Below are positions 6,994 through 62,092 of a DNA stretch of 64,000 nucleotides, one piece after another. Under the pieces are notes generated by a model. It was not told the origin of the DNA and ran no database searches. It saw only the letters and a program-made list of their open reading frames with translations. A program made the translations under genes and the position numbers. Every line of letters begins with the position of its first letter. Position 1 is the stretch's first letter. The DNA comes from a phage, in the sequence record MZ956761.1. One strand, given 5' to 3'.

Positions 6994-7706
6994 ATGAAAC
7001 TAATCTTTTTAAGCGGTGTAAAGCGTAGTGGAAAAGATACTACTGCTGATTTTATCATGAGCAATTATTCTGCAGTTAAATACCAACTTGCTGGTCCTAT
7101 TAAGGATGCATTGGCTTATGCATGGGGAGTATTTGTAGCAAACACTGACTATCCTTGTTTAACTCGTAAAGAGTTTGAAGGAATTGACTATGATCGTGAA
7201 ACTAATTTAAATCTGACTAAATTAGAAGTAATTACGATTATGGAACAAGCATTTTGCTATCTTAATAGTAAAAGCCCAATTAAAGGTGTGTTTGTTTTTG
7301 ATGACGCAGTTAATTTCGTAGCATTTAACAAGATTGCTGACGTTATAAATAATATTGAAGATCAATGGTCAGTCCGTCGTCTGATGCAAGCCCTAGGTAC
7401 GGATTTGATTGTTAATAACTTCGACCGCATGTATTGGGTAAAATTATTTGCTTTAGATTATCTTGATAAATTTAACTCAGGTTATGATTATTATATCGTT
7501 CCTGATACTCGTCAAGATCATGAAATGGATGCGGCTAGGGCGATGGGTGCTACAGTAATTCATGTAGTTCGTCCTGGTCAAAAATCCAATGATACTCATA
7601 TTACAGAAGCTGGATTGCCAATTCGTGATGGCGATTTAGTAATTACAAACGATGGTTCTCTTGAAGAACTTTTTTCTAAAATTAAAAATACACTAAAGGT
7701 ACTATA

Positions 7707-7707
<1 letters not shown>
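6994..7707 (+). CDS. 1: Deoxynucleoside monophosphate kinase gp1
   Basis: 237 aa; P-loop GVKRSGKDT; recognised T4 gp1 sequence. Confidence 0.9.
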
Positions 7708-8404
<697 letters not shown>

Positions 8405-8416
8405 TTTCACAAAGTT

Positions 8417-8446
8417 GTTTACATGCTGATGAGGTAGTGATACTAT
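8417..8446 (+). promoter_or_regulatory. Early promoter (GTTTAC -35, TACTAT -10), copy 1 of repeated cassette
   Basis: GTTTAC 8417-8422, 18-nt spacer, TACTAT 8441-8446; -10 flanked by GAGGTA/TACCTC dyad. Confidence 0.55.
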
Positions 8447-8476
8447 TACCTCATCAAAATTAATTAGGAAAATAAA

Positions 8477-8734
8477 ATGAAAACTTTCAAAGAGTTTGCT
8501 ACAAAAACTATTATCACTGAATCTTCTCATGGTATGGAAGTAAAGCTTGGAATGGCTTTAGCTGAAGCTGAGCGTCTTTTCTCTCGTATTAAAGAACTTG
8601 CTGCTGCAGTCGATCCTTCATCTTTTAAAGGAGACCAAACGAAAGTTAAAGCGCTTTTAGCATTATGCTCTGATGCAGGCGAAATCGCTAAGAACGGTTC
8701 TAAGATGAAGAAACGATTAGAAGATTTAAAATAA
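8477..8734 (+). CDS. Internal-protein-like small protein (CTS-like N-terminus MKTFKEF)
   Basis: 85 aa; RBS AGGAAA; N-terminus resembles capsid targeting sequence with I-x-E site (IITE). Confidence 0.5.
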   Translation: MKTFKEFATKTIITESSHGMEVKLGMALAEAERLFSRIKELAAAVDPSSFKGDQTKVKALLALCSDAGEIAKNGSKMKKRLEDLK

Positions 8735-8746
8735 TTTCACAAAGTT

Positions 8747-8776
8747 GTTTACACGGGGTTTTAGTAGTGATACTAT
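8747..8776 (+). promoter_or_regulatory. Early promoter, copy 2 of repeated cassette
   Basis: Near-identical to 8405-8452: aatttcacaaagttgtttac...gtgatactattacc. Confidence 0.55.
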
Positions 8777-8812
8777 TACCCTATCAAAACAAATGTGAGA
8801 TTGGAGAATAAA

Positions 8813-9046
8813 ATGAAAACTTATCAAGAATTTATTGCTGAAACTGCTGATGTAAAAGTTGAGTTTATTTATACTGACAAGAAAGATAAAATGGGTGAAA
8901 TGCCTCATGGAGTTCTTCGCGATGCATTAGATAATTTCGGTCAACTCGCTGCAGAAGATTACGGTGATAAAATTGTTGTTACTGGTCCTGCTGCAGTTAT
9001 TGAAAAATGGGCAGCAGAAAATAAATCAATTTTTCGTAAAAAATAA
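8813..9046 (+). CDS. Internal protein (IPI-locus type), CTS MKTYQEFIAE
   Basis: 77 aa from ATG 8813 (RBS GGAGAA); exact T4 internal-protein N-terminal decapeptide. Confidence 0.6.
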   Translation: MKTYQEFIAETADVKVEFIYTDKKDKMGEMPHGVLRDALDNFGQLAAEDYGDKIVVTGPAAVIEKWAAENKSIFRKK

Positions 9047-9076
9047 GTTTACTTTTAGATAGGGTAGTGATACTAT
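9047..9076 (+). promoter_or_regulatory. Early promoter, copy 3 of repeated cassette
   Basis: GTTTAC 9047-9052, TACTAT 9071-9076; -10 flanked by 9-bp dyad GATAGGGTA/TACCCTATC. Confidence 0.55.
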
Positions 9077-9104
9077 TACCCTATCAACTACTGAGGAGAA
9101 TAAA

Positions 9105-9290
9105 ATGAAACGTTGTGAATTAATTCGAAATGTTGCTATTGCAATTTCTGCTTCTGCTTTTAGTTTTTCAATGTTTGTTGGATTTATATGCGGATTATTG
9201 ACTACAGCAGAAAATGTTTTTTCACTTGTAGTAGCATTTTTAATTGGTTTAATTGCTATCGTTATGGATAAAATTTCTAAAGGTGAATAG
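9105..9290 (+). CDS. Small membrane protein
   Basis: 61 aa, two hydrophobic segments; RBS GAGGAGAA. Confidence 0.45.
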   Translation: MKRCELIRNVAIAISASAFSFSMFVGFICGLLTTAENVFSLVVAFLIGLIAIVMDKISKGE

Positions 9291-9701
9291 ATGAGTATTA
9301 ACGAATATTATGTTTATGCTGGGGATTATGCAAATCCTTCTCATTTTGAAGGTAATTTAATACCTGATAAAGTTTTTAATACTCCTTTTGAAGCGTGGAG
9401 TTGGATTGAAAGTAAAAATGGATTTTCTTACCGTTATGTTGAAGTAACTGATTGGAGAGGAACTAAATATCCTAAAGACCATTATTACGTAAATCCATCT
9501 AAGGTAAATTTTCTTTTATTCGCAGGTGATAATTATTACCCTTGTGGTGGATATGATGATTTAATTGCGTATGCTGAAACAGAAGATAAACTGCGTGATA
9601 TCATTAAAGAAAATGAAAATAAACCAGATTATGGTTCTAATCGCTTTGACTGGTGGCAAATCGTAAATGCCCATACTCATGCTATTGTTGATAGAGGTTG
9701 A
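9291..9701 (+). CDS. Hypothetical protein
   Basis: 136 aa ORF, start abuts upstream stop; Tyr/Trp-rich. Confidence 0.5.
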   Translation: MSINEYYVYAGDYANPSHFEGNLIPDKVFNTPFEAWSWIESKNGFSYRYVEVTDWRGTKYPKDHYYVNPSKVNFLLFAGDNYYPCGGYDDLIAYAETEDKLRDIIKENENKPDYGSNRFDWWQIVNAHTHAIVDRG

Positions 9702-9991
9702 TAATGATACTTTATGCGAAAGTATCGTCCATTGAAAATGGATATAAATATGATCAAGAAGCAGCTAAAGCCTTGATTGATGATTATGGCATTTTAACAT
9801 GTTTTGAAGTTGAAAAGGTTTACATTGATCGTTCATCTTCTCAAGTTAAATTAGTGAAGGAAGACCGTAAATTTAATACAGTAAATTTTGATTTCTTTAT
9901 TGAAACAGAAAAAGGTCCTCTTGAATATGATATTTTCAAGAATCCTTTGAGTCTTGAATGTATCGTAAATACGTATCATCATAAATGGTAA
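9698..9991 (+). CDS. Hypothetical protein
   Basis: 97 aa ORF with ATGA overlap to upstream gene. Confidence 0.5.
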   Translation: MIMILYAKVSSIENGYKYDQEAAKALIDDYGILTCFEVEKVYIDRSSSQVKLVKEDRKFNTVNFDFFIETEKGPLEYDIFKNPLSLECIVNTYHHKW

Positions 9992-10088
9992 ATATGCTTT
10001 AAGAATTATTTGTTATTATTAACTCATACCACACTGATTAATACCCTCTATCATCAAGGGTTCTTGTTAGAGAGCCTTTGTTAATAAT

Positions 10089-10161
10089 TGGGAATTAGCC
10101 AAGTTGGTAAGGCATAGCACTTTGACTGCTAGATGCAAAGGTTCGAGTCCTTTATTCCCAG
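10089..10161 (+). tRNA. tRNA-Gln (UUG)
   Basis: Acceptor tgggaat/attccca, T-loop ttcgagt, anticodon loop cTTTGAc. Confidence 0.85.
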
Positions 10162-10162
10162 C

Positions 10163-10249
10163 GCGAGAATGGTCAAATTGGTAAAGGCACAGCACTTAAA
10201 ATGCTGCGGAATGATTTCCTTGTGGGTTCGAGTCCCACTTCTCGCACCA
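10163..10249 (+). tRNA. tRNA-Leu (UAA), type II, CCA encoded
   Basis: Acceptor gcgagaa/ttctcgc, anticodon loop cTTAAAa, long variable arm. Confidence 0.85.
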
Positions 10250-10254
10250 AATTT

Positions 10255-10328
<74 letters not shown>

Positions 10329-10338
10329 ATTTAATCTA

Positions 10339-10412
10339 CTCCGTGTAGCTCAGTTTGGTAGAGCGCCTGATTTGGGATCAGGAGGTCCAAGGTTCAAATC
10401 CTTGTATGGAGA
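10339..10412 (+). tRNA. tRNA-Pro (UGG)
   Basis: Acceptor ctccgtg/tatggag (two G-U), anticodon loop tTTGGGa. Confidence 0.8.
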
Positions 10413-10414
10413 CT

Positions 10415-10504
10415 GGAGGCGTGGCAGAGTGGTTTAATGCACCGGTCTTGAAAACCGGCAGTCGCTCCGGCGACTCATAGGTTCAAATCCTATCGCCTCC
10501 GCCA
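10415..10504 (+). tRNA. tRNA-Ser (UGA), type II, CCA encoded
   Basis: Acceptor ggaggcg/cgcctcc, anticodon loop cTTGAAa, long variable arm. Confidence 0.85.
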
Positions 10505-10509
10505 GTTTT

Positions 10510-10585
10510 GCTGATTTAGCTCAGTAGGTAGAGCAACTCACTTGTAATGAGAAGGTCGGCGGTTCGATTCCGTCAATCAGCACCA
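10510..10585 (+). tRNA. tRNA-Thr (UGU), CCA encoded
   Basis: Acceptor gctgatt/aatcagc, anticodon loop cTTGTAa. Confidence 0.85.
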
Positions 10586-10586
10586 A

Positions 10587-10661
10587 GGCCCTGTAGCTGG
10601 AAGGTTCAAGCAAGCGACTCATAATCGCCAGATGGTGGTTCAATTCCACCCAGGGCCACCA
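10587..10661 (+). tRNA. tRNA with CAU anticodon (Ile by analogy with T4; Met not excluded)
   Basis: Acceptor ggccctg/cagggcc, anticodon loop cTCATAa. Confidence 0.8.
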
Positions 10662-10674
10662 AATTAAGAATTAA

Positions 10675-10761
10675 GGGGAGTTATCCCGTAGAGGTAGCGG
10701 TGTGGACTGTAAATCCATTGTCATTGCGACTCGGGTGGTTCGACTCCATCACTCCCCACCA
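10675..10761 (+). tRNA. tRNA-Tyr (GUA), type II, CCA encoded
   Basis: Acceptor ggggagt/actcccc, anticodon loop cTGTAAa, variable arm resembling bacterial tRNA-Tyr. Confidence 0.75.
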
Positions 10762-10765
10762 ATTT

Positions 10766-10840
10766 GGATGTGTAGCTCAATGGCAGAGCGATCGCCTGTT
10801 AAGCGATTGGTTATAGGTTCGAATCCTATCACGTCCGCCA
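10766..10840 (+). tRNA. tRNA-Asn (GUU), CCA encoded
   Basis: Acceptor ggatgtg/cacgtcc, anticodon stem atcgc/gcgat, loop cTGTTAa. Confidence 0.8.
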
Positions 10841-10954
10841 AATTTGTGACAACTGTCACATTAATATCTACTTGACGCGATTATAGGGGTTGAACTGATC
10901 ACTCTTCTCTTAATTTCGTGTGAAGACATCTTGATTGTTGGAGTAGGTATTAAT
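10841..10954 (+). ncRNA. Inter-tRNA spacer, possible small stable RNA
   Basis: 114-nt segment between tRNA-Asn and tRNA-His with hairpin tgtgac-aact-gtcaca at 10845-10860; tRNA processing would release it. Confidence 0.25.
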
Positions 10955-11030
10955 GTGGCCGTAGTTCAGTTGGTAGAACTCGAGATTGTGATTCTCGTAG
11001 TCATGGGTTCGACTCCCATCGGTCACCCCA
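10955..11030 (+). tRNA. tRNA-His (GUG), CCA encoded
   Basis: Acceptor gtggccg/cggtcac, anticodon stem cgaga/tctcg, loop tTGTGAt. Confidence 0.8.
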
Positions 11031-11034
11031 ATTA

Positions 11035-11110
11035 CGGGGCATAGCTCAGAAGGAAGAGCAAGGACCTTCTAAGTCCTAGGTCGTAGGTTCGATCCCTACT
11101 GCCTCGACCA
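11035..11110 (+). tRNA. tRNA-Arg (UCU), CCA encoded
   Basis: Acceptor cggggca/tgcctcg, anticodon loop cTTCTAa. Confidence 0.85.
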
Positions 11111-11750: not shown

Positions 11751-11788
11751 TTAGCAGGTGGAACCCCGACAAGGTTGCCGCAAGGCTT

Positions 11789-11816
11789 AGCCCCGACCGA
11801 AAGGTTGGGGCTTTTT
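11789..11816 (+). terminator. Rho-independent terminator
   Basis: agccccgacc-gaaa-ggttggggct hairpin followed by TTTTT. Confidence 0.7.
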
Positions 11817-11862
11817 AGTATAAATAAGTATATTAAAACCACGAATTAAAACAGGAAATAAG

Positions 11863-12336
11863 ATGAAATCATATGCTCAATTTTTAAATGAAGCGGTGTT
11901 AAATGAAGCATCTAGCACCGAAATTCAAGCTGTTGCAAAAGCTGCCATTGCCGCGGGTAAATATTCCTATAAGGATGCTTCCGATGAATCACGATTCCAA
12001 TTTGCTCGTGATATGAAAGCCGAAGGATTTACAGGGAATGCAGTTAGTATGGCTTGGAAAAGTTTAGTTGCTACTGGAGCTGCTTTTGCAAAGGCTTCAG
12101 GTAAACCTGCTCCTAAGGCTGACCCTAAAGCAGCACAAGAAAAAAATATTGCTAAAGGAATTATCTCTAGGTATGAAGCAATTCTTAAAGAACTTTTGAT
12201 AATTAAGACCGAAGGCCAGAAACTTGCGCGAGCTCATAGTTTCAAAGATAATCCACATGCTCATGACCTAGAGTATGTTGAAGACATCCAAAAAATTATT
12301 AAAGACCGCATTTGGTCTGCTAAACAAATCAAATAA
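11863..12336 (+). CDS. Hypothetical protein with CTS-like N-terminus (MKSYAQFLNE)
   Basis: 157 aa; RBS AGGAAA; Ala/Lys-rich; N-terminal decapeptide resembles capsid targeting sequence. Confidence 0.5.
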   Translation: MKSYAQFLNEAVLNEASSTEIQAVAKAAIAAGKYSYKDASDESRFQFARDMKAEGFTGNAVSMAWKSLVATGAAFAKASGKPAPKADPKAAQEKNIAKGIISRYEAILKELLIIKTEGQKLARAHSFKDNPHAHDLEYVEDIQKIIKDRIWSAKQIK

Positions 12337-12343
12337 CATTCTT

Positions 12344-12371
12344 AGCCCCGACCGAAAGGTTGGGGCTTTTT
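12344..12371 (+). terminator. Rho-independent terminator (same sequence as 11789-11816)
   Basis: Identical hairpin plus T-tract. Confidence 0.7.
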
Positions 12372-12503
12372 GGTATCTAGGCCTTTCCGGGCCTCTCTAG
12401 GCATCATTTAGTTTATACCCTTTATAATATATTATCCTACCTTTTAATTGCCCCTCCTGACCCTAGAATTCCCTAAAAATTTTTAAAATTTTTTCACAAA
12501 ACG

Positions 12504-16983: not shown

Positions 16984-17301
16984 ATGAAAACGTATAAAGA
17001 ATTTATTGCAGAATCTGCTGCAGGACAACGTGTAGAAGGCGGTTATATCTGGATTGAACAAGTTGAGCCGCCGAGTCGCACTTCTACGGGTAAATGGAAA
17101 ATCACTGTTGATGGTCCTGGTGGTAAACGTAGGACTCTTAAAGAAATTAACGGGTACTATGAAGAAGCTCTTTCTGACGCGGGTACTTATATGATGCAAA
17201 TCATGATTAAAAACCCAGAAAATCGTTTTGCGGCTAGAGTTTTCCGCCGTATTGGAAATAAGCTTTATGATGCATATTCTAAAAACTTTCCTAAAGAATA
17301 A
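16984..17301 (+). CDS. Internal protein (CTS MKTYKEFIAE)
   Basis: 105 aa; CTS-type N-terminus with I-A-E site; IPII/IPIII locus position. Confidence 0.6.
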   Translation: MKTYKEFIAESAAGQRVEGGYIWIEQVEPPSRTSTGKWKITVDGPGGKRRTLKEINGYYEEALSDAGTYMMQIMIKNPENRFAARVFRRIGNKLYDAYSKNFPKE

Positions 17302-17317
17302 AAATTAAAGGATACAC

Positions 17318-17791
17318 ATGAAAACATATCAAGAATTTATTACTGAAGCAGCTATTAATTCTCAAATTATTGCTGAATCTTTTACTGATCTTTTGAAATT
17401 TAAAAAAGGTCAAAAAATCACTGCTGTATTGGATGATGGTACAGAAGTTGAGATGGATGTACAGGGATATAATTATGCAGTAGATGGAAAACTGTATAAT
17501 AAATCTCATGCTAAATTTGATTCATTTGACGACTTTGTTAATACAGTTGAAGATGAAAAAACTCGTAGATCCATTGCAACTGGTGATGCTAAGGTTCTTA
17601 TGGCACATGGTCATGAACGCATTCGCGCTAAACAGAATAAAATGGGTGAAGATAATTTTGCATTAGTTGGTTATCAATCTGGTAAACAAACTTATGGCTA
17701 TCAGCGTACTGCTACCATGTATAACAAAAATGGTAAAATCGCTTTCGTGAATAGCAAAGGCTCTATTCAGTACGTCAAATCATTCAAATAA
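17318..17791 (+). CDS. Internal protein (CTS MKTYQEFITE)
   Basis: 157 aa; CTS-type N-terminus. Confidence 0.6.
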   Translation: MKTYQEFITEAAINSQIIAESFTDLLKFKKGQKITAVLDDGTEVEMDVQGYNYAVDGKLYNKSHAKFDSFDDFVNTVEDEKTRRSIATGDAKVLMAHGHERIRAKQNKMGEDNFALVGYQSGKQTYGYQRTATMYNKNGKIAFVNSKGSIQYVKSFK

Positions 17792-24967: not shown

Positions 24968-25010
24968 GTTTACAAGTTGACAAGGTTATGGTATAGTAAT
25001 CTTGTCAACT
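24968..25010 (+). promoter_or_regulatory. Early promoter with 10-bp dyad embracing the -10 region
   Basis: GTTTAC 24968-24973, TATAGT 24992-24997; AGTTGACAAG 24975-24984 complementary to CTTGTCAACT 25001-25010. Confidence 0.5.
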
Positions 25011-58667: not shown

Positions 58668-60095
58668 GTGGTAGAAATTATTCTTTCTCATCTCATATTT
58701 GATCAAGCTTATTTTTCAAAAGTTTGGCCATATATGGATTCAGAATATTTTGAAAGTGGTCCAGCTAAAAATACATTCAAATTAATTAAATCTCATGTTA
58801 ATGAGTACCATAGCGTTCCATCTATTAATGCGTTAAATGTTGCATTAGAAAATAGTTCATTTACTGAAACAGAATATTCTGGTGTAAAAACACTTATTTC
58901 AAAACTAGCTGATTCTCCGGAAGACCACAGTTGGTTAATAAAAGAAACAGAAAAATATGTTCAGCAAAGGGCGATGTTTAATGCTACGTCTAAAATAATC
59001 GAAATTCAAACTAATGCTGAGCTTCCTCCGGAAAAACGAAATAAGAAAATGCCGGACGTTGGTGCTATTCCTGACATCATGCGTCAAGCATTATCTATTT
59101 CATTTGATAGCTACGTTGGTCATGATTGGATGGATGACTACGAAGCACGCTGGCTATCTTATATGAATAAAGCTCGTAAAGTTCCATTTAAACTTCGTAT
59201 TTTGAATAAAATTACAAAAGGCGGAGCTGAAACAGGAACACTGAACGTTTTAATGGCTGGTGTTAACGTTGGTAAGTCATTAGGATTGTGTTCATTAGCA
59301 GCAGATTATTTGCAGCTCGGACATAATGTTCTTTACATTTCCATGGAAATGGCAGAAGAAGTTTGTGCTAAGCGTATTGACGCTAATATGCTTGATGTTT
59401 CTCTTGATGACATTGATGATGGGCATATTTCTTACGCTGAGTATAAAGGAAAAATGGAAAAATGGCGTGAGAAATCTACTCTCGGTCGTTTAATCGTTAA
59501 GCAATATCCCACTGGTGGAGCAGACGCTAATACATTTCGATCGCTTTTAAACGAATTGAAGCTCAAGAAGAATTTTGTTCCAACAATCATTATTGTTGAC
59601 TATCTAGGTATTTGTAAATCTTGCCGCATCAGAGTTTATTCAGAAAATAGTTACACAACTGTTAAAGCTATCGCAGAGGAATTGCGTGCTCTGGCTGTTG
59701 AAACCGAAACTGTTCTTTGGACTGCAGCGCAGGTTGGTAAGCAAGCTTGGGATTCTTCTGATGTTAACATGAGCGATATTGCAGAATCTGCCGGTCTTCC
59801 AGCAACAGCCGATTTTATGCTTGCGGTCATTGAAACCGAGGAGCTAGCAGCTGCTGAACAACAACTCATTAAGCAAATCAAATCACGATATGGTGATAAG
59901 AATAAATGGAATAAGTTTTTGATGGGTGTTCAAAAAGGAAATCAGAAATGGGTAGAAATTGAACAAGATTCTACTCCAACTGAAGTAAGTGAAGTAGCAG
60001 GTTCACAGCAGATTCAGGCTGAACAGAATCGCTATCAAAGAAACGAATCTGCTCGAGCCCAGTTAGATGCTTTAGCGAATGAATTAAAATTTTAG
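58668..60095 (+). CDS. 41: Replicative DNA helicase gp41
   Basis: 475 aa, GTG start after AAGGAG; MVEIILSHLIFDQAYF; Walker A GVNVGKS. Confidence 0.95.
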   Translation: MVEIILSHLIFDQAYFSKVWPYMDSEYFESGPAKNTFKLIKSHVNEYHSVPSINALNVALENSSFTETEYSGVKTLISKLADSPEDHSWLIKETEKYVQQRAMFNATSKIIEIQTNAELPPEKRNKKMPDVGAIPDIMRQALSISFDSYVGHDWMDDYEARWLSYMNKARKVPFKLRILNKITKGGAETGTLNVLMAGVNVGKSLGLCSLAADYLQLGHNVLYISMEMAEEVCAKRIDANMLDVSLDDIDDGHISYAEYKGKMEKWREKSTLGRLIVKQYPTGGADANTFRSLLNELKLKKNFVPTIIIVDYLGICKSCRIRVYSENSYTTVKAIAEELRALAVETETVLWTAAQVGKQAWDSSDVNMSDIAESAGLPATADFMLAVIETEELAAAEQQLIKQIKSRYGDKNKWNKFLMGVQKGNQKWVEIEQDSTPTEVSEVAGSQQIQAEQNRYQRNESARAQLDALANELKF

Positions 60096-60131
60096 TTTAC
60101 AAGCCGACAAGACTATGGTATAGTAGTCTTG
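60094..60131 (+). promoter_or_regulatory. Early promoter with 9-bp dyad embracing the -10 region
   Basis: GTTTAC 60094-60099, TATAGT 60118-60123; ACAAGACTA 60106-60114 complementary to TAGTCTTGT 60123-60131. Confidence 0.5.
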
Positions 60132-60153
60132 TTGGTTAAATGAGGAGATTGTT

Positions 60154-60597: not shown

Positions 60598-60639
60598 GTT
60601 TACAAGCTGATAGAGTTGTGTTATAGTAATTCTATCAGC
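60598..60639 (+). promoter_or_regulatory. Early promoter with 9-bp dyad embracing the -10 region
   Basis: GTTTAC 60598-60603, TATAGT 60622-60627; GCTGATAGA 60606-60614 complementary to TCTATCAGC 60631-60639. Confidence 0.5.
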
Positions 60640-60658
60640 TAATCGCGGAGAAAAGAAA

Positions 60659-61927: not shown

Positions 61928-62092
61928 ATGAAAACATATAAAGAATTTATTAAAGAAGATATGGTCGCTGGAGATTCAGGTGGTAATCCTGAAAATATCT
62001 CCACTGGAACAACGTCAGGCGCTGTAGTAAATAAAGGTCCTGAACAGATTCCTAAAAAGAAAAAAGAGGAATCTAAAGAAAAAGAAGAGTAA
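61928..62092 (+). CDS. Small protein with CTS-like N-terminus (MKTYKEFIKE)
   Basis: 54 aa; after I-K-E the rest is Gly/Lys/Glu-rich. Confidence 0.4.
   Translation: MKTYKEFIKEDMVAGDSGGNPENISTGTTSGAVVNKGPEQIPKKKKEESKEKEE

Follow-up and report, generated by a model that had tools for sequence, protein, structure and literature searches.

The closest described system is the ipI locus of phage T4, for the product of which packaging, cleavage and injection have been proven. Targeting and gp21 processing have been described for the T4 internal proteins IPII and IPIII (PMC9026906). According to Mullaney and Black, as relayed in that article, targeting needs positions 4 and 7 of the N-terminal sequence, processing needs positions 8 and 10, and gp21 cuts after L/I-x-E. 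A further point of comparison is given by the PeSL cassettes of RB49/phi1, PST/T4 and nt-1/KVP40 (PMC2839356, PMC4122927), which are built from an A/T-rich stretch, an early promoter, a stem-loop, a ribosome-binding site and an ATG, and which lie in hyperplastic regions beside insertions, deletions and replacements. As summarized by Arbiol et al. (2010), PeSL-like elements flanking two variable T-even internal-protein (IP) loci were already seen by Repoila et al. (1994, EMBO J 13:4181); the same authors give the number of known IP variants as >30 and regard the T-even IP-associated elements as analogues, not homologues, of the RB49 PeSLs. PeSL-like elements at IP loci were likewise reported by Comeau et al. 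(2014), with five IP differences between PST and T4. The early-promoter consensus published for PST/T4 is TTTACW-N17-TAYWAT (PMC2839356, PMC4122927).

With respect to function, Ip1, Ip2 and Ip3 were found to inhibit one GmrSD type IV enzyme each, a different one in every case, and it was proposed that all proteins of both Ip loci target GmrSD variants (Silas et al. 2025, PMC12373910). In the published GmrSD panels ip4-10 were without reproducible inhibition of the variants tried, and T6, which is 97% identical over the locus analysed here, was restricted by the ECOR21 and ECOR17 GmrSD enzymes (PMC12373910). Of the checks suggested with the original prediction, plating on hosts with type IV restriction has thereby been carried out in part.

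The present locus has the position, the flanking genes (57B and trna.4) and the propeptide logic of T4 ipI, and differs from it in holding two cassettes (ip5 and ip6) instead of one (ipI) and in having mature regions unrelated to IPI; no likeness of Ip5 or Ip6 to IPI, IPII or IPIII was found beyond the propeptide. With the PeSL cassettes it shares the order of elements from A/T-rich stretch to ATG and the hyperplastic setting. The stem-loop, by contrast, spans the -10 box here, where theirs precedes the promoter, and has no T-run after it. Ip5 and Ip6 resemble the GmrSD inhibitors Ip1-Ip3 in being small proteins of a presumably injected type, encoded at the same two loci, and differ from them in showing no sequence or fold similarity.

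Position and genes of the locus

Over positions 7700-10100 of the window (the whole stretch of DNA that was analysed, 64 kb), Escherichia phage ADUt, a T6-like Tequatrovirus, matched at 100% identity, and T6 and Yersinia phage PST each at 97%. The locus is the interval 57B-trna.4, which in T4 is occupied by ipI, and the gene order is that of PST and T4: gp1 (dNMP kinase), 57A, 57B (Acb1), ip5, ip6, trna.4, trna.3, trna.2 and tRNAs. The genes of the interval and its flanks were as follows.

7949..8404, + strand: gene 57B (Acb1, anti-CBASS), conserved left flank, with its last 15 nt inside module 1
8477..8734, + strand: ip5, 85 aa, propeptide MKTFKEFATKTIITE, predicted cleavage after E15
8813..9046, + strand: ip6, 77 aa from the ATG, propeptide MKTYQEFIAE, predicted cleavage after E10
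9105..9290, + strand: trna.4, 61 aa, hydrophobic, conserved right flank, start MKRCELIRNVAIAIS

Gene 57B matched Pfam Acb1 (E 2.6e-60), in agreement with the ADUt annotation, and showed 97% identity to T4. The product of trna.4, a gene with module 3 as its promoter, is without the targeting motif; it matched phrog_1692, gave no match in a Pfam search, and is annotated as 'Trna.4 ... predicted membrane protein' in T4 and as tRNA.4 in PST. Both ip5 and ip6 are annotated 'internal head protein' (Ip5/IpV and Ip6/IpVI) in PST, RB32, JB75, VR7 and others, under the names ipV and ipVI in PST and Ip5 and Ip6 in JB75, where a promoter is annotated ahead of each. The ip5/ip6 locus is already known, and adds nothing beyond published work. 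It was read as the hypervariable internal-protein locus, of the type of ipI, in a T6-like Tequatrovirus; in this locus the genes are carried as self-contained promoter/hairpin/targeting-sequence cassettes and the products would be packaged and injected; the probability assigned to this reading was about 0.88.

In an Rfam search, the tRNAs downstream of the locus were the sole matches. At 10089-11107, eleven tRNA genes were observed (T4 has eight, PST nine); the cluster of this phage has extra Asn, His and Met tRNAs and is without the segB homing endonuclease.

Promoter modules, hairpins and cassette exchange

Three near-identical modules had been claimed in the original prediction. A repeat search returned three copies (8417-8457, 8747-8787 and 9047-9087), and in each of them GTTTAC is followed, after an 18-nt gap, by TACTAT within the exact 14-mer GTGATACTATTACC; the copies were, however, about 80% identical (78-80% over 41 nt), and not near-identical. 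The modules were delimited as listed.

8389..8464, + strand: module 1, with an A/T-rich upstream part, the -35 TTTACA at 8418-8423 and the TG-extended -10 TACTAT at 8441-8446
8719..8794, + strand: module 2, with GTTTAC of the -35 at 8747-8752 and the -10 TACTAT at 8771-8776
9047..9104, + strand: module 3, with GTTTAC of the -35 at 9047-9052 and the -10 TACTAT at 9071-9076, then the ribosome-binding site GGAG

Copies 1 and 2 are longer, extending over 76 nt (8389-8464 and 8719-8794) at 84% identity, and module 3 is without the upstream TTTCACAAAGTT part. The 64 kb window contains exactly three copies of the 14-mer, all at this locus; when up to 2 mismatches were allowed, 4 matches were obtained against 0.33 expected, a count reached in 0/100 shuffles. 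In promoter terms, GTTTAC-N18-TACTAT gives a 17-nt spacer for the hexamer TTTACA/T, together with an extended -10 TG, and the published consensus TTTACW-N17-TAYWAT is matched by all three modules. That a ribosome-binding site and an ATG should come after each promoter had also been foreseen, and was borne out in 3/3 modules, the sequence after the promoter being AGGAAAATAAAATG, TGGAGAATAAAATG or AGGAGAATAAAATG. The T4-early-type pattern GTTTAC-N15-TGnTAYWAT had 21 matches in the window, all on the + strand, for 0.2 expected. The counterpart of module 1 in phage JB75 carries a 'promoter' annotation; the T4 GenBank records contained no promoter features, and published mapping of T4 transcription starts at ipI was looked for with no usable result. 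In the proposed mechanism, the cassette promoters would be read by the host sigma-70 RNA polymerase right after infection.

No T4 late-promoter box was found within the locus, the nearest on the + strand being at 7344. Because no late box lies inside the locus, the supply of Ip5 and Ip6 during late assembly needs either read-through or persistence of protein made early. In early mRNAs, GGAG is the motif cut by the T4 RegB endoribonuclease; it was observed in the ribosome-binding sites of ip6 (8803-8806) and trna.4 (9095-9098), and the ip5 site is AGGAA without GGAG.

The repeat formed by modules 1 and 2 was also seen to enter the 3' ends of the upstream coding sequences (8389-8404 and 8719-8734, respectively), which have GATTTAAAATAA in common; 57B ends in ...DDLK and Ip5 in ...EDLK. 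As both genes end in the common GATTTAAAATAA, the C-terminus of Ip5 looks copied from 57B, at cassette insertion or duplication.

A feature beyond the original prediction was a 12-13 bp hairpin spanning the -10 box in each module, with the box placed in the loop and upper stem.

8427..8456, + strand: hairpin 1, with a 13-bp stem and an AUAC loop; RNA fold -17.4 kcal/mol, z -3.7
8755-8782, + strand: hairpin 2 (inner), with a shifted 5' arm; extended structure -23 kcal/mol, z -4.4
9058-9085, + strand: hairpin 3; -17.4 kcal/mol, z -3.3

The arms of hairpin 1 include a perfect 10-bp Watson-Crick pairing, and between modules 1 and 3 compensatory GA>AG and TC>CT changes were found. When 30 distinct modules were compared, double changes were present at 8/13 pairs, and the covariation score was 0.224 against 0.173 +/- 0.013 for shuffled data (reached in 0/500), with slid-partner controls at 0.130 or below. 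In module 2, and in the second T4 module (before trna.4), pairing is kept via a 5' arm 6 nt further upstream. A T-run after the hairpin was absent at 3/3, and a terminator scan called none of the three; the hairpins are not canonical terminators, since they lack the following T-run. Strong hairpins (-18 to -22 kcal/mol) were also observed to flank the -10 box at other early promoters (24968-25010, 60095-60140, 60598-60640 and also 19941), and the -10-enclosing hairpin is therefore not confined to the internal-protein locus.

For comparison between phages, 36 IMG/VR loci were fetched with the 57B protein, and the 32 in which trna.4 was found, together with the window, gave 33 intervals. These contained 0-5 targeting-sequence ORFs each, and the N-terminal motif together with a hydrophobic-x-E site was present in 60 of the 65 that reached 50 aa or more; the mature regions fell into about 14 unrelated families by single-linkage BLASTP. 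A hypervariable internal-protein locus, as had been proposed, is what was found across these 33 related loci, and raw-sequence reading can thus pick out a phage counter-defence hotspot via promoter repeats and a targeting peptide. One locus (L036) has ip6 alone and is without exactly one 330-bp repeat unit (ip5), in another (L035) the same flanking modules enclose a different cargo of 102 aa, and a third (L010) has zero cassettes. Between close relatives, the modules were located at the boundaries of insertions, deletions and replacements. In blastn against T4, 97% identity extended from 57B to 8510 (~34 nt into ip5) and resumed at 9067, in the module 3 core, at 98.5%. The module upstream of T4 ipI has one mismatch to module 1 over the promoter/hairpin part, and the next T4 module, located between ipI and trna.4, is chimeric: its 5' part corresponds to module 2 and its 3' part to module 3. 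Other chimeric modules likewise combine the 5' hairpin arm of one type with the 3' arm of another, joined at the -10 core, which marks the core as a crossover site; crossover points were found in the promoter core or in the targeting-sequence codons.

That the three modules are independent early promoters, alike by consensus and with no part in recombination or cassette exchange, was considered very unlikely. Such promoters are common, as the 21 early-pattern matches in the window indicate, and much of the common sequence is -35, TG and -10 consensus, but GTGATACTATTACC is exact in all three modules and absent from the other 18 promoters, and the likeness of modules 1 and 2 (84% over 76 nt) includes 3' codons of the upstream genes. 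The homology breakpoints with respect to T4, L035 and L036 at modules, and the existence of chimeric modules, also argue for a role in exchange. The PeSL model, in which the hairpins are terminators or insulators acting on read-through RNA and making each cassette transcriptionally independent, is possible but was judged doubtful. It is consistent with the stability of the hairpins (-17 to -23 kcal/mol, z -3.3 to -4.4), with the compensatory changes by which they are kept among the 30 distinct modules (0.224 against 0.173 +/- 0.013) and with the description of the RB49 PeSL stem-loops as effective terminators. It is opposed by the missing T-run at all three and the negative terminator scan, and by the fact that these hairpins enclose the -10 box, whereas the PST PeSLs are described with the stem-loop upstream of the promoter. 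Strong termination would, moreover, block late read-through starting at the 7344 box, and no other late source of these transcripts is obvious. The hairpins might equally well stabilise 3' ends, form a recombination structure at the DNA level or modulate the opening of the promoter. For the modules themselves cassette exchange is the preferred reading: by these alignments, the shared promoter core and targeting-sequence codons are homology patches for cassette gain, loss and swap between phages. Within the arms race of T-even phages and host restriction systems, the locus is a textbook example of genes being shuffled as modules.

Targeting sequences, predicted processing and cargo

From its 5' end, a cassette would comprise the A/T-rich stretch, the early promoter TTTACW-N17-TG-n-TACTAT, the -10-enclosing hairpin, the ribosome-binding site with ATG, 10-15 targeting codons and a variable cargo. 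The expected starts MKTFKEF..IITE and MKTYQEFIAE were found in the ORFs at 8477-8734 (in full MKTFKEFATKTIITE) and 8813-9046, respectively. The first 10 residues of Ip6 are identical to the propeptide of T4 IPII and IPIII; MKTYQEFIAE, given in the original prediction as the classical T4 targeting sequence, belongs to these two proteins and not to IPI. Ip5 differs in having a 15-residue IPI-like propeptide, and its MKTFKEFATKTIITE resembles MKTFKEFTSTTTPVSTITE, with which T4 IPI itself starts. The I-x-E site reads ITE in Ip5 (residues 13-15) and IAE in Ip6 (residues 8-10).

Among 45 distinct 30-nt starts at the locus, Y/F4 was present in 44/45, E6 in 43/45, F7 in 44/45, I/L/M/V8 in 42/45 and E10 in 41/45; positions 5 and 9 vary, and the codons vary synonymously. 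Judged by this pattern, selection acts on the targeting sequence at the protein level. Propeptides of the Ip5 family have 10 or 15 aa, and conservation sets in exactly at the predicted cleavage site (S16). The ADUt genome encodes, outside the window, gp21 (Peptidase_S77, E 1.5e-111) and the gp22 scaffold (T4_CASP, E 9.5e-90).

Given the motif, Ip5 and Ip6 are probably packaged in the head, cleaved and injected with the DNA. By analogy with T4 IPI-III, each protein would be docked by its propeptide onto the scaffolding core that gp22 forms in the prohead, the protease gp21 would cut after I-x-E (after E15 in Ip5 and after E10 in Ip6), and the mature proteins of ~7.5 kDa would be retained in the head and delivered together with the DNA into the next host cell. 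A finding against this account is the mildly acidic character of mature Ip6 (pI 5.7), as the T4 internal proteins are basic. It was considered very unlikely that the N-termini represent DNA homology carried in a recombination module, with Ip5 and Ip6 being ordinary early cytoplasmic proteins that are not packaged. Such an account would fit the homology to T4, which, running ~34 nt into the coding region, places the 5' codons within the patch that is exchanged, the early and not late promoters, and a literature search in which no virion proteomics was found for Ip5 or Ip6. It does not fit the conservation at protein level of the targeting and cleavage residues, with synonymous codons and free positions 5 and 9, nor the presence of the motif and a hydrophobic-x-E site in 60/65 interval ORFs; in T4, furthermore, the same module (with a single mismatch in its promoter/hairpin part) precedes ipI, the product of which is known with proof to be packaged, cleaved and injected. 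Packaging and injection of Ip5 and Ip6 is accordingly retained as the probable course.

The predicted mature Ip5 has ~7.5 kDa and a pI of 9.2. Ip5 matched phrog_3499 (internal head protein, E 8.4e-50, residues 1-85/85) and bears the UniRef name 'Ip5', with the phage RB70 entry Q38378 included. A helical hairpin was predicted by AlphaFold2 (pLDDT 74, from a shallow alignment of 5 sequences). The predicted mature Ip6 is likewise of ~7.5 kDa, with the pI given above; Ip6 matched phrog_8111 (internal virion protein, E 1.7e-51, residues 1-77/77), is named Ip6 in UniRef and source records, and was predicted by AlphaFold2 as a small beta-alpha-beta-beta-alpha-beta, ferredoxin-like fold (pLDDT 68, from a shallow alignment of 9 sequences). 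The mature regions were present in 495 (Ip5) and 231 (Ip6) phage records. Pfam searches with Ip5 and Ip6 gave no match, and a PDB sequence search with both gave nothing meaningful. When both models were run in Foldseek against the PDB, only generic ferredoxin-like/designed and helical-hairpin folds were returned, none of them a significant match (best E 0.03 and 0.55), and the models, being of moderate quality, were given no functional reading. Searches of 5.8 billion proteins with the two sequences returned close T4-like homologues only (11 clusters in one search and 5 in the other) and no distant relatives by which the profiles could have been deepened. After injection, Ip5 and Ip6 would most likely neutralise a host defence nuclease. 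The target of Ip5 and Ip6 is relevant to host-range prediction for therapeutic T4-like phages.

Other targeting-sequence-like reading frames

An ORF of 157 aa at 11863-12336 (+ strand) starts with MKSYAQFLNE followed by AVLNE and thus has two L-x-E sites; its mature pI is about 9.4. A T4 late-promoter box, TATAAATA, is located near it at 11819-11826, and near-identical 36-nt terminator repeats flank it at 11786-11821 and 12341-12376. The ORF matched phrog_2280 (function not assigned), is absent from T4, and is a 'hypothetical protein' or unannotated in 25/25 records listed of the 512 with a match. It is a candidate for an unannotated internal protein at a third site. Rather doubtful, at somewhat under one chance in three, was the joint proposition that the -10 hairpin is a selected functional element (a structure-guided crossover site or an RNA-level insulator/stabiliser), that Ip5 and Ip6 disarm a defence other than the tested GmrSD variants and that the ORF at 11863-12336 encodes a further internal protein.

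A second internal-protein locus lies directly after lysozyme e, where T4 has ipIII and ipII. Its ORFs, and one with a similar start elsewhere in the window, were as follows.

16984-17301, + strand: 105-aa ORF, MKTYKEFIAE..., phrog_3966 ('unknown function')
17318-17791, + strand: 157-aa ORF, MKTYQEFITE..., DUF7412 / phrog_3155 (internal virion protein)
61928-62092, + strand: 54-aa ORF, MKTYKEFIKE, directly upstream of the primase gene, phrog_1823 (unknown function)

The ORF at 61928-62092 combines its targeting-sequence-like start, with I-K-E, and a low-complexity acidic/lysine tail, and is annotated as a hypothetical protein in ADUt.
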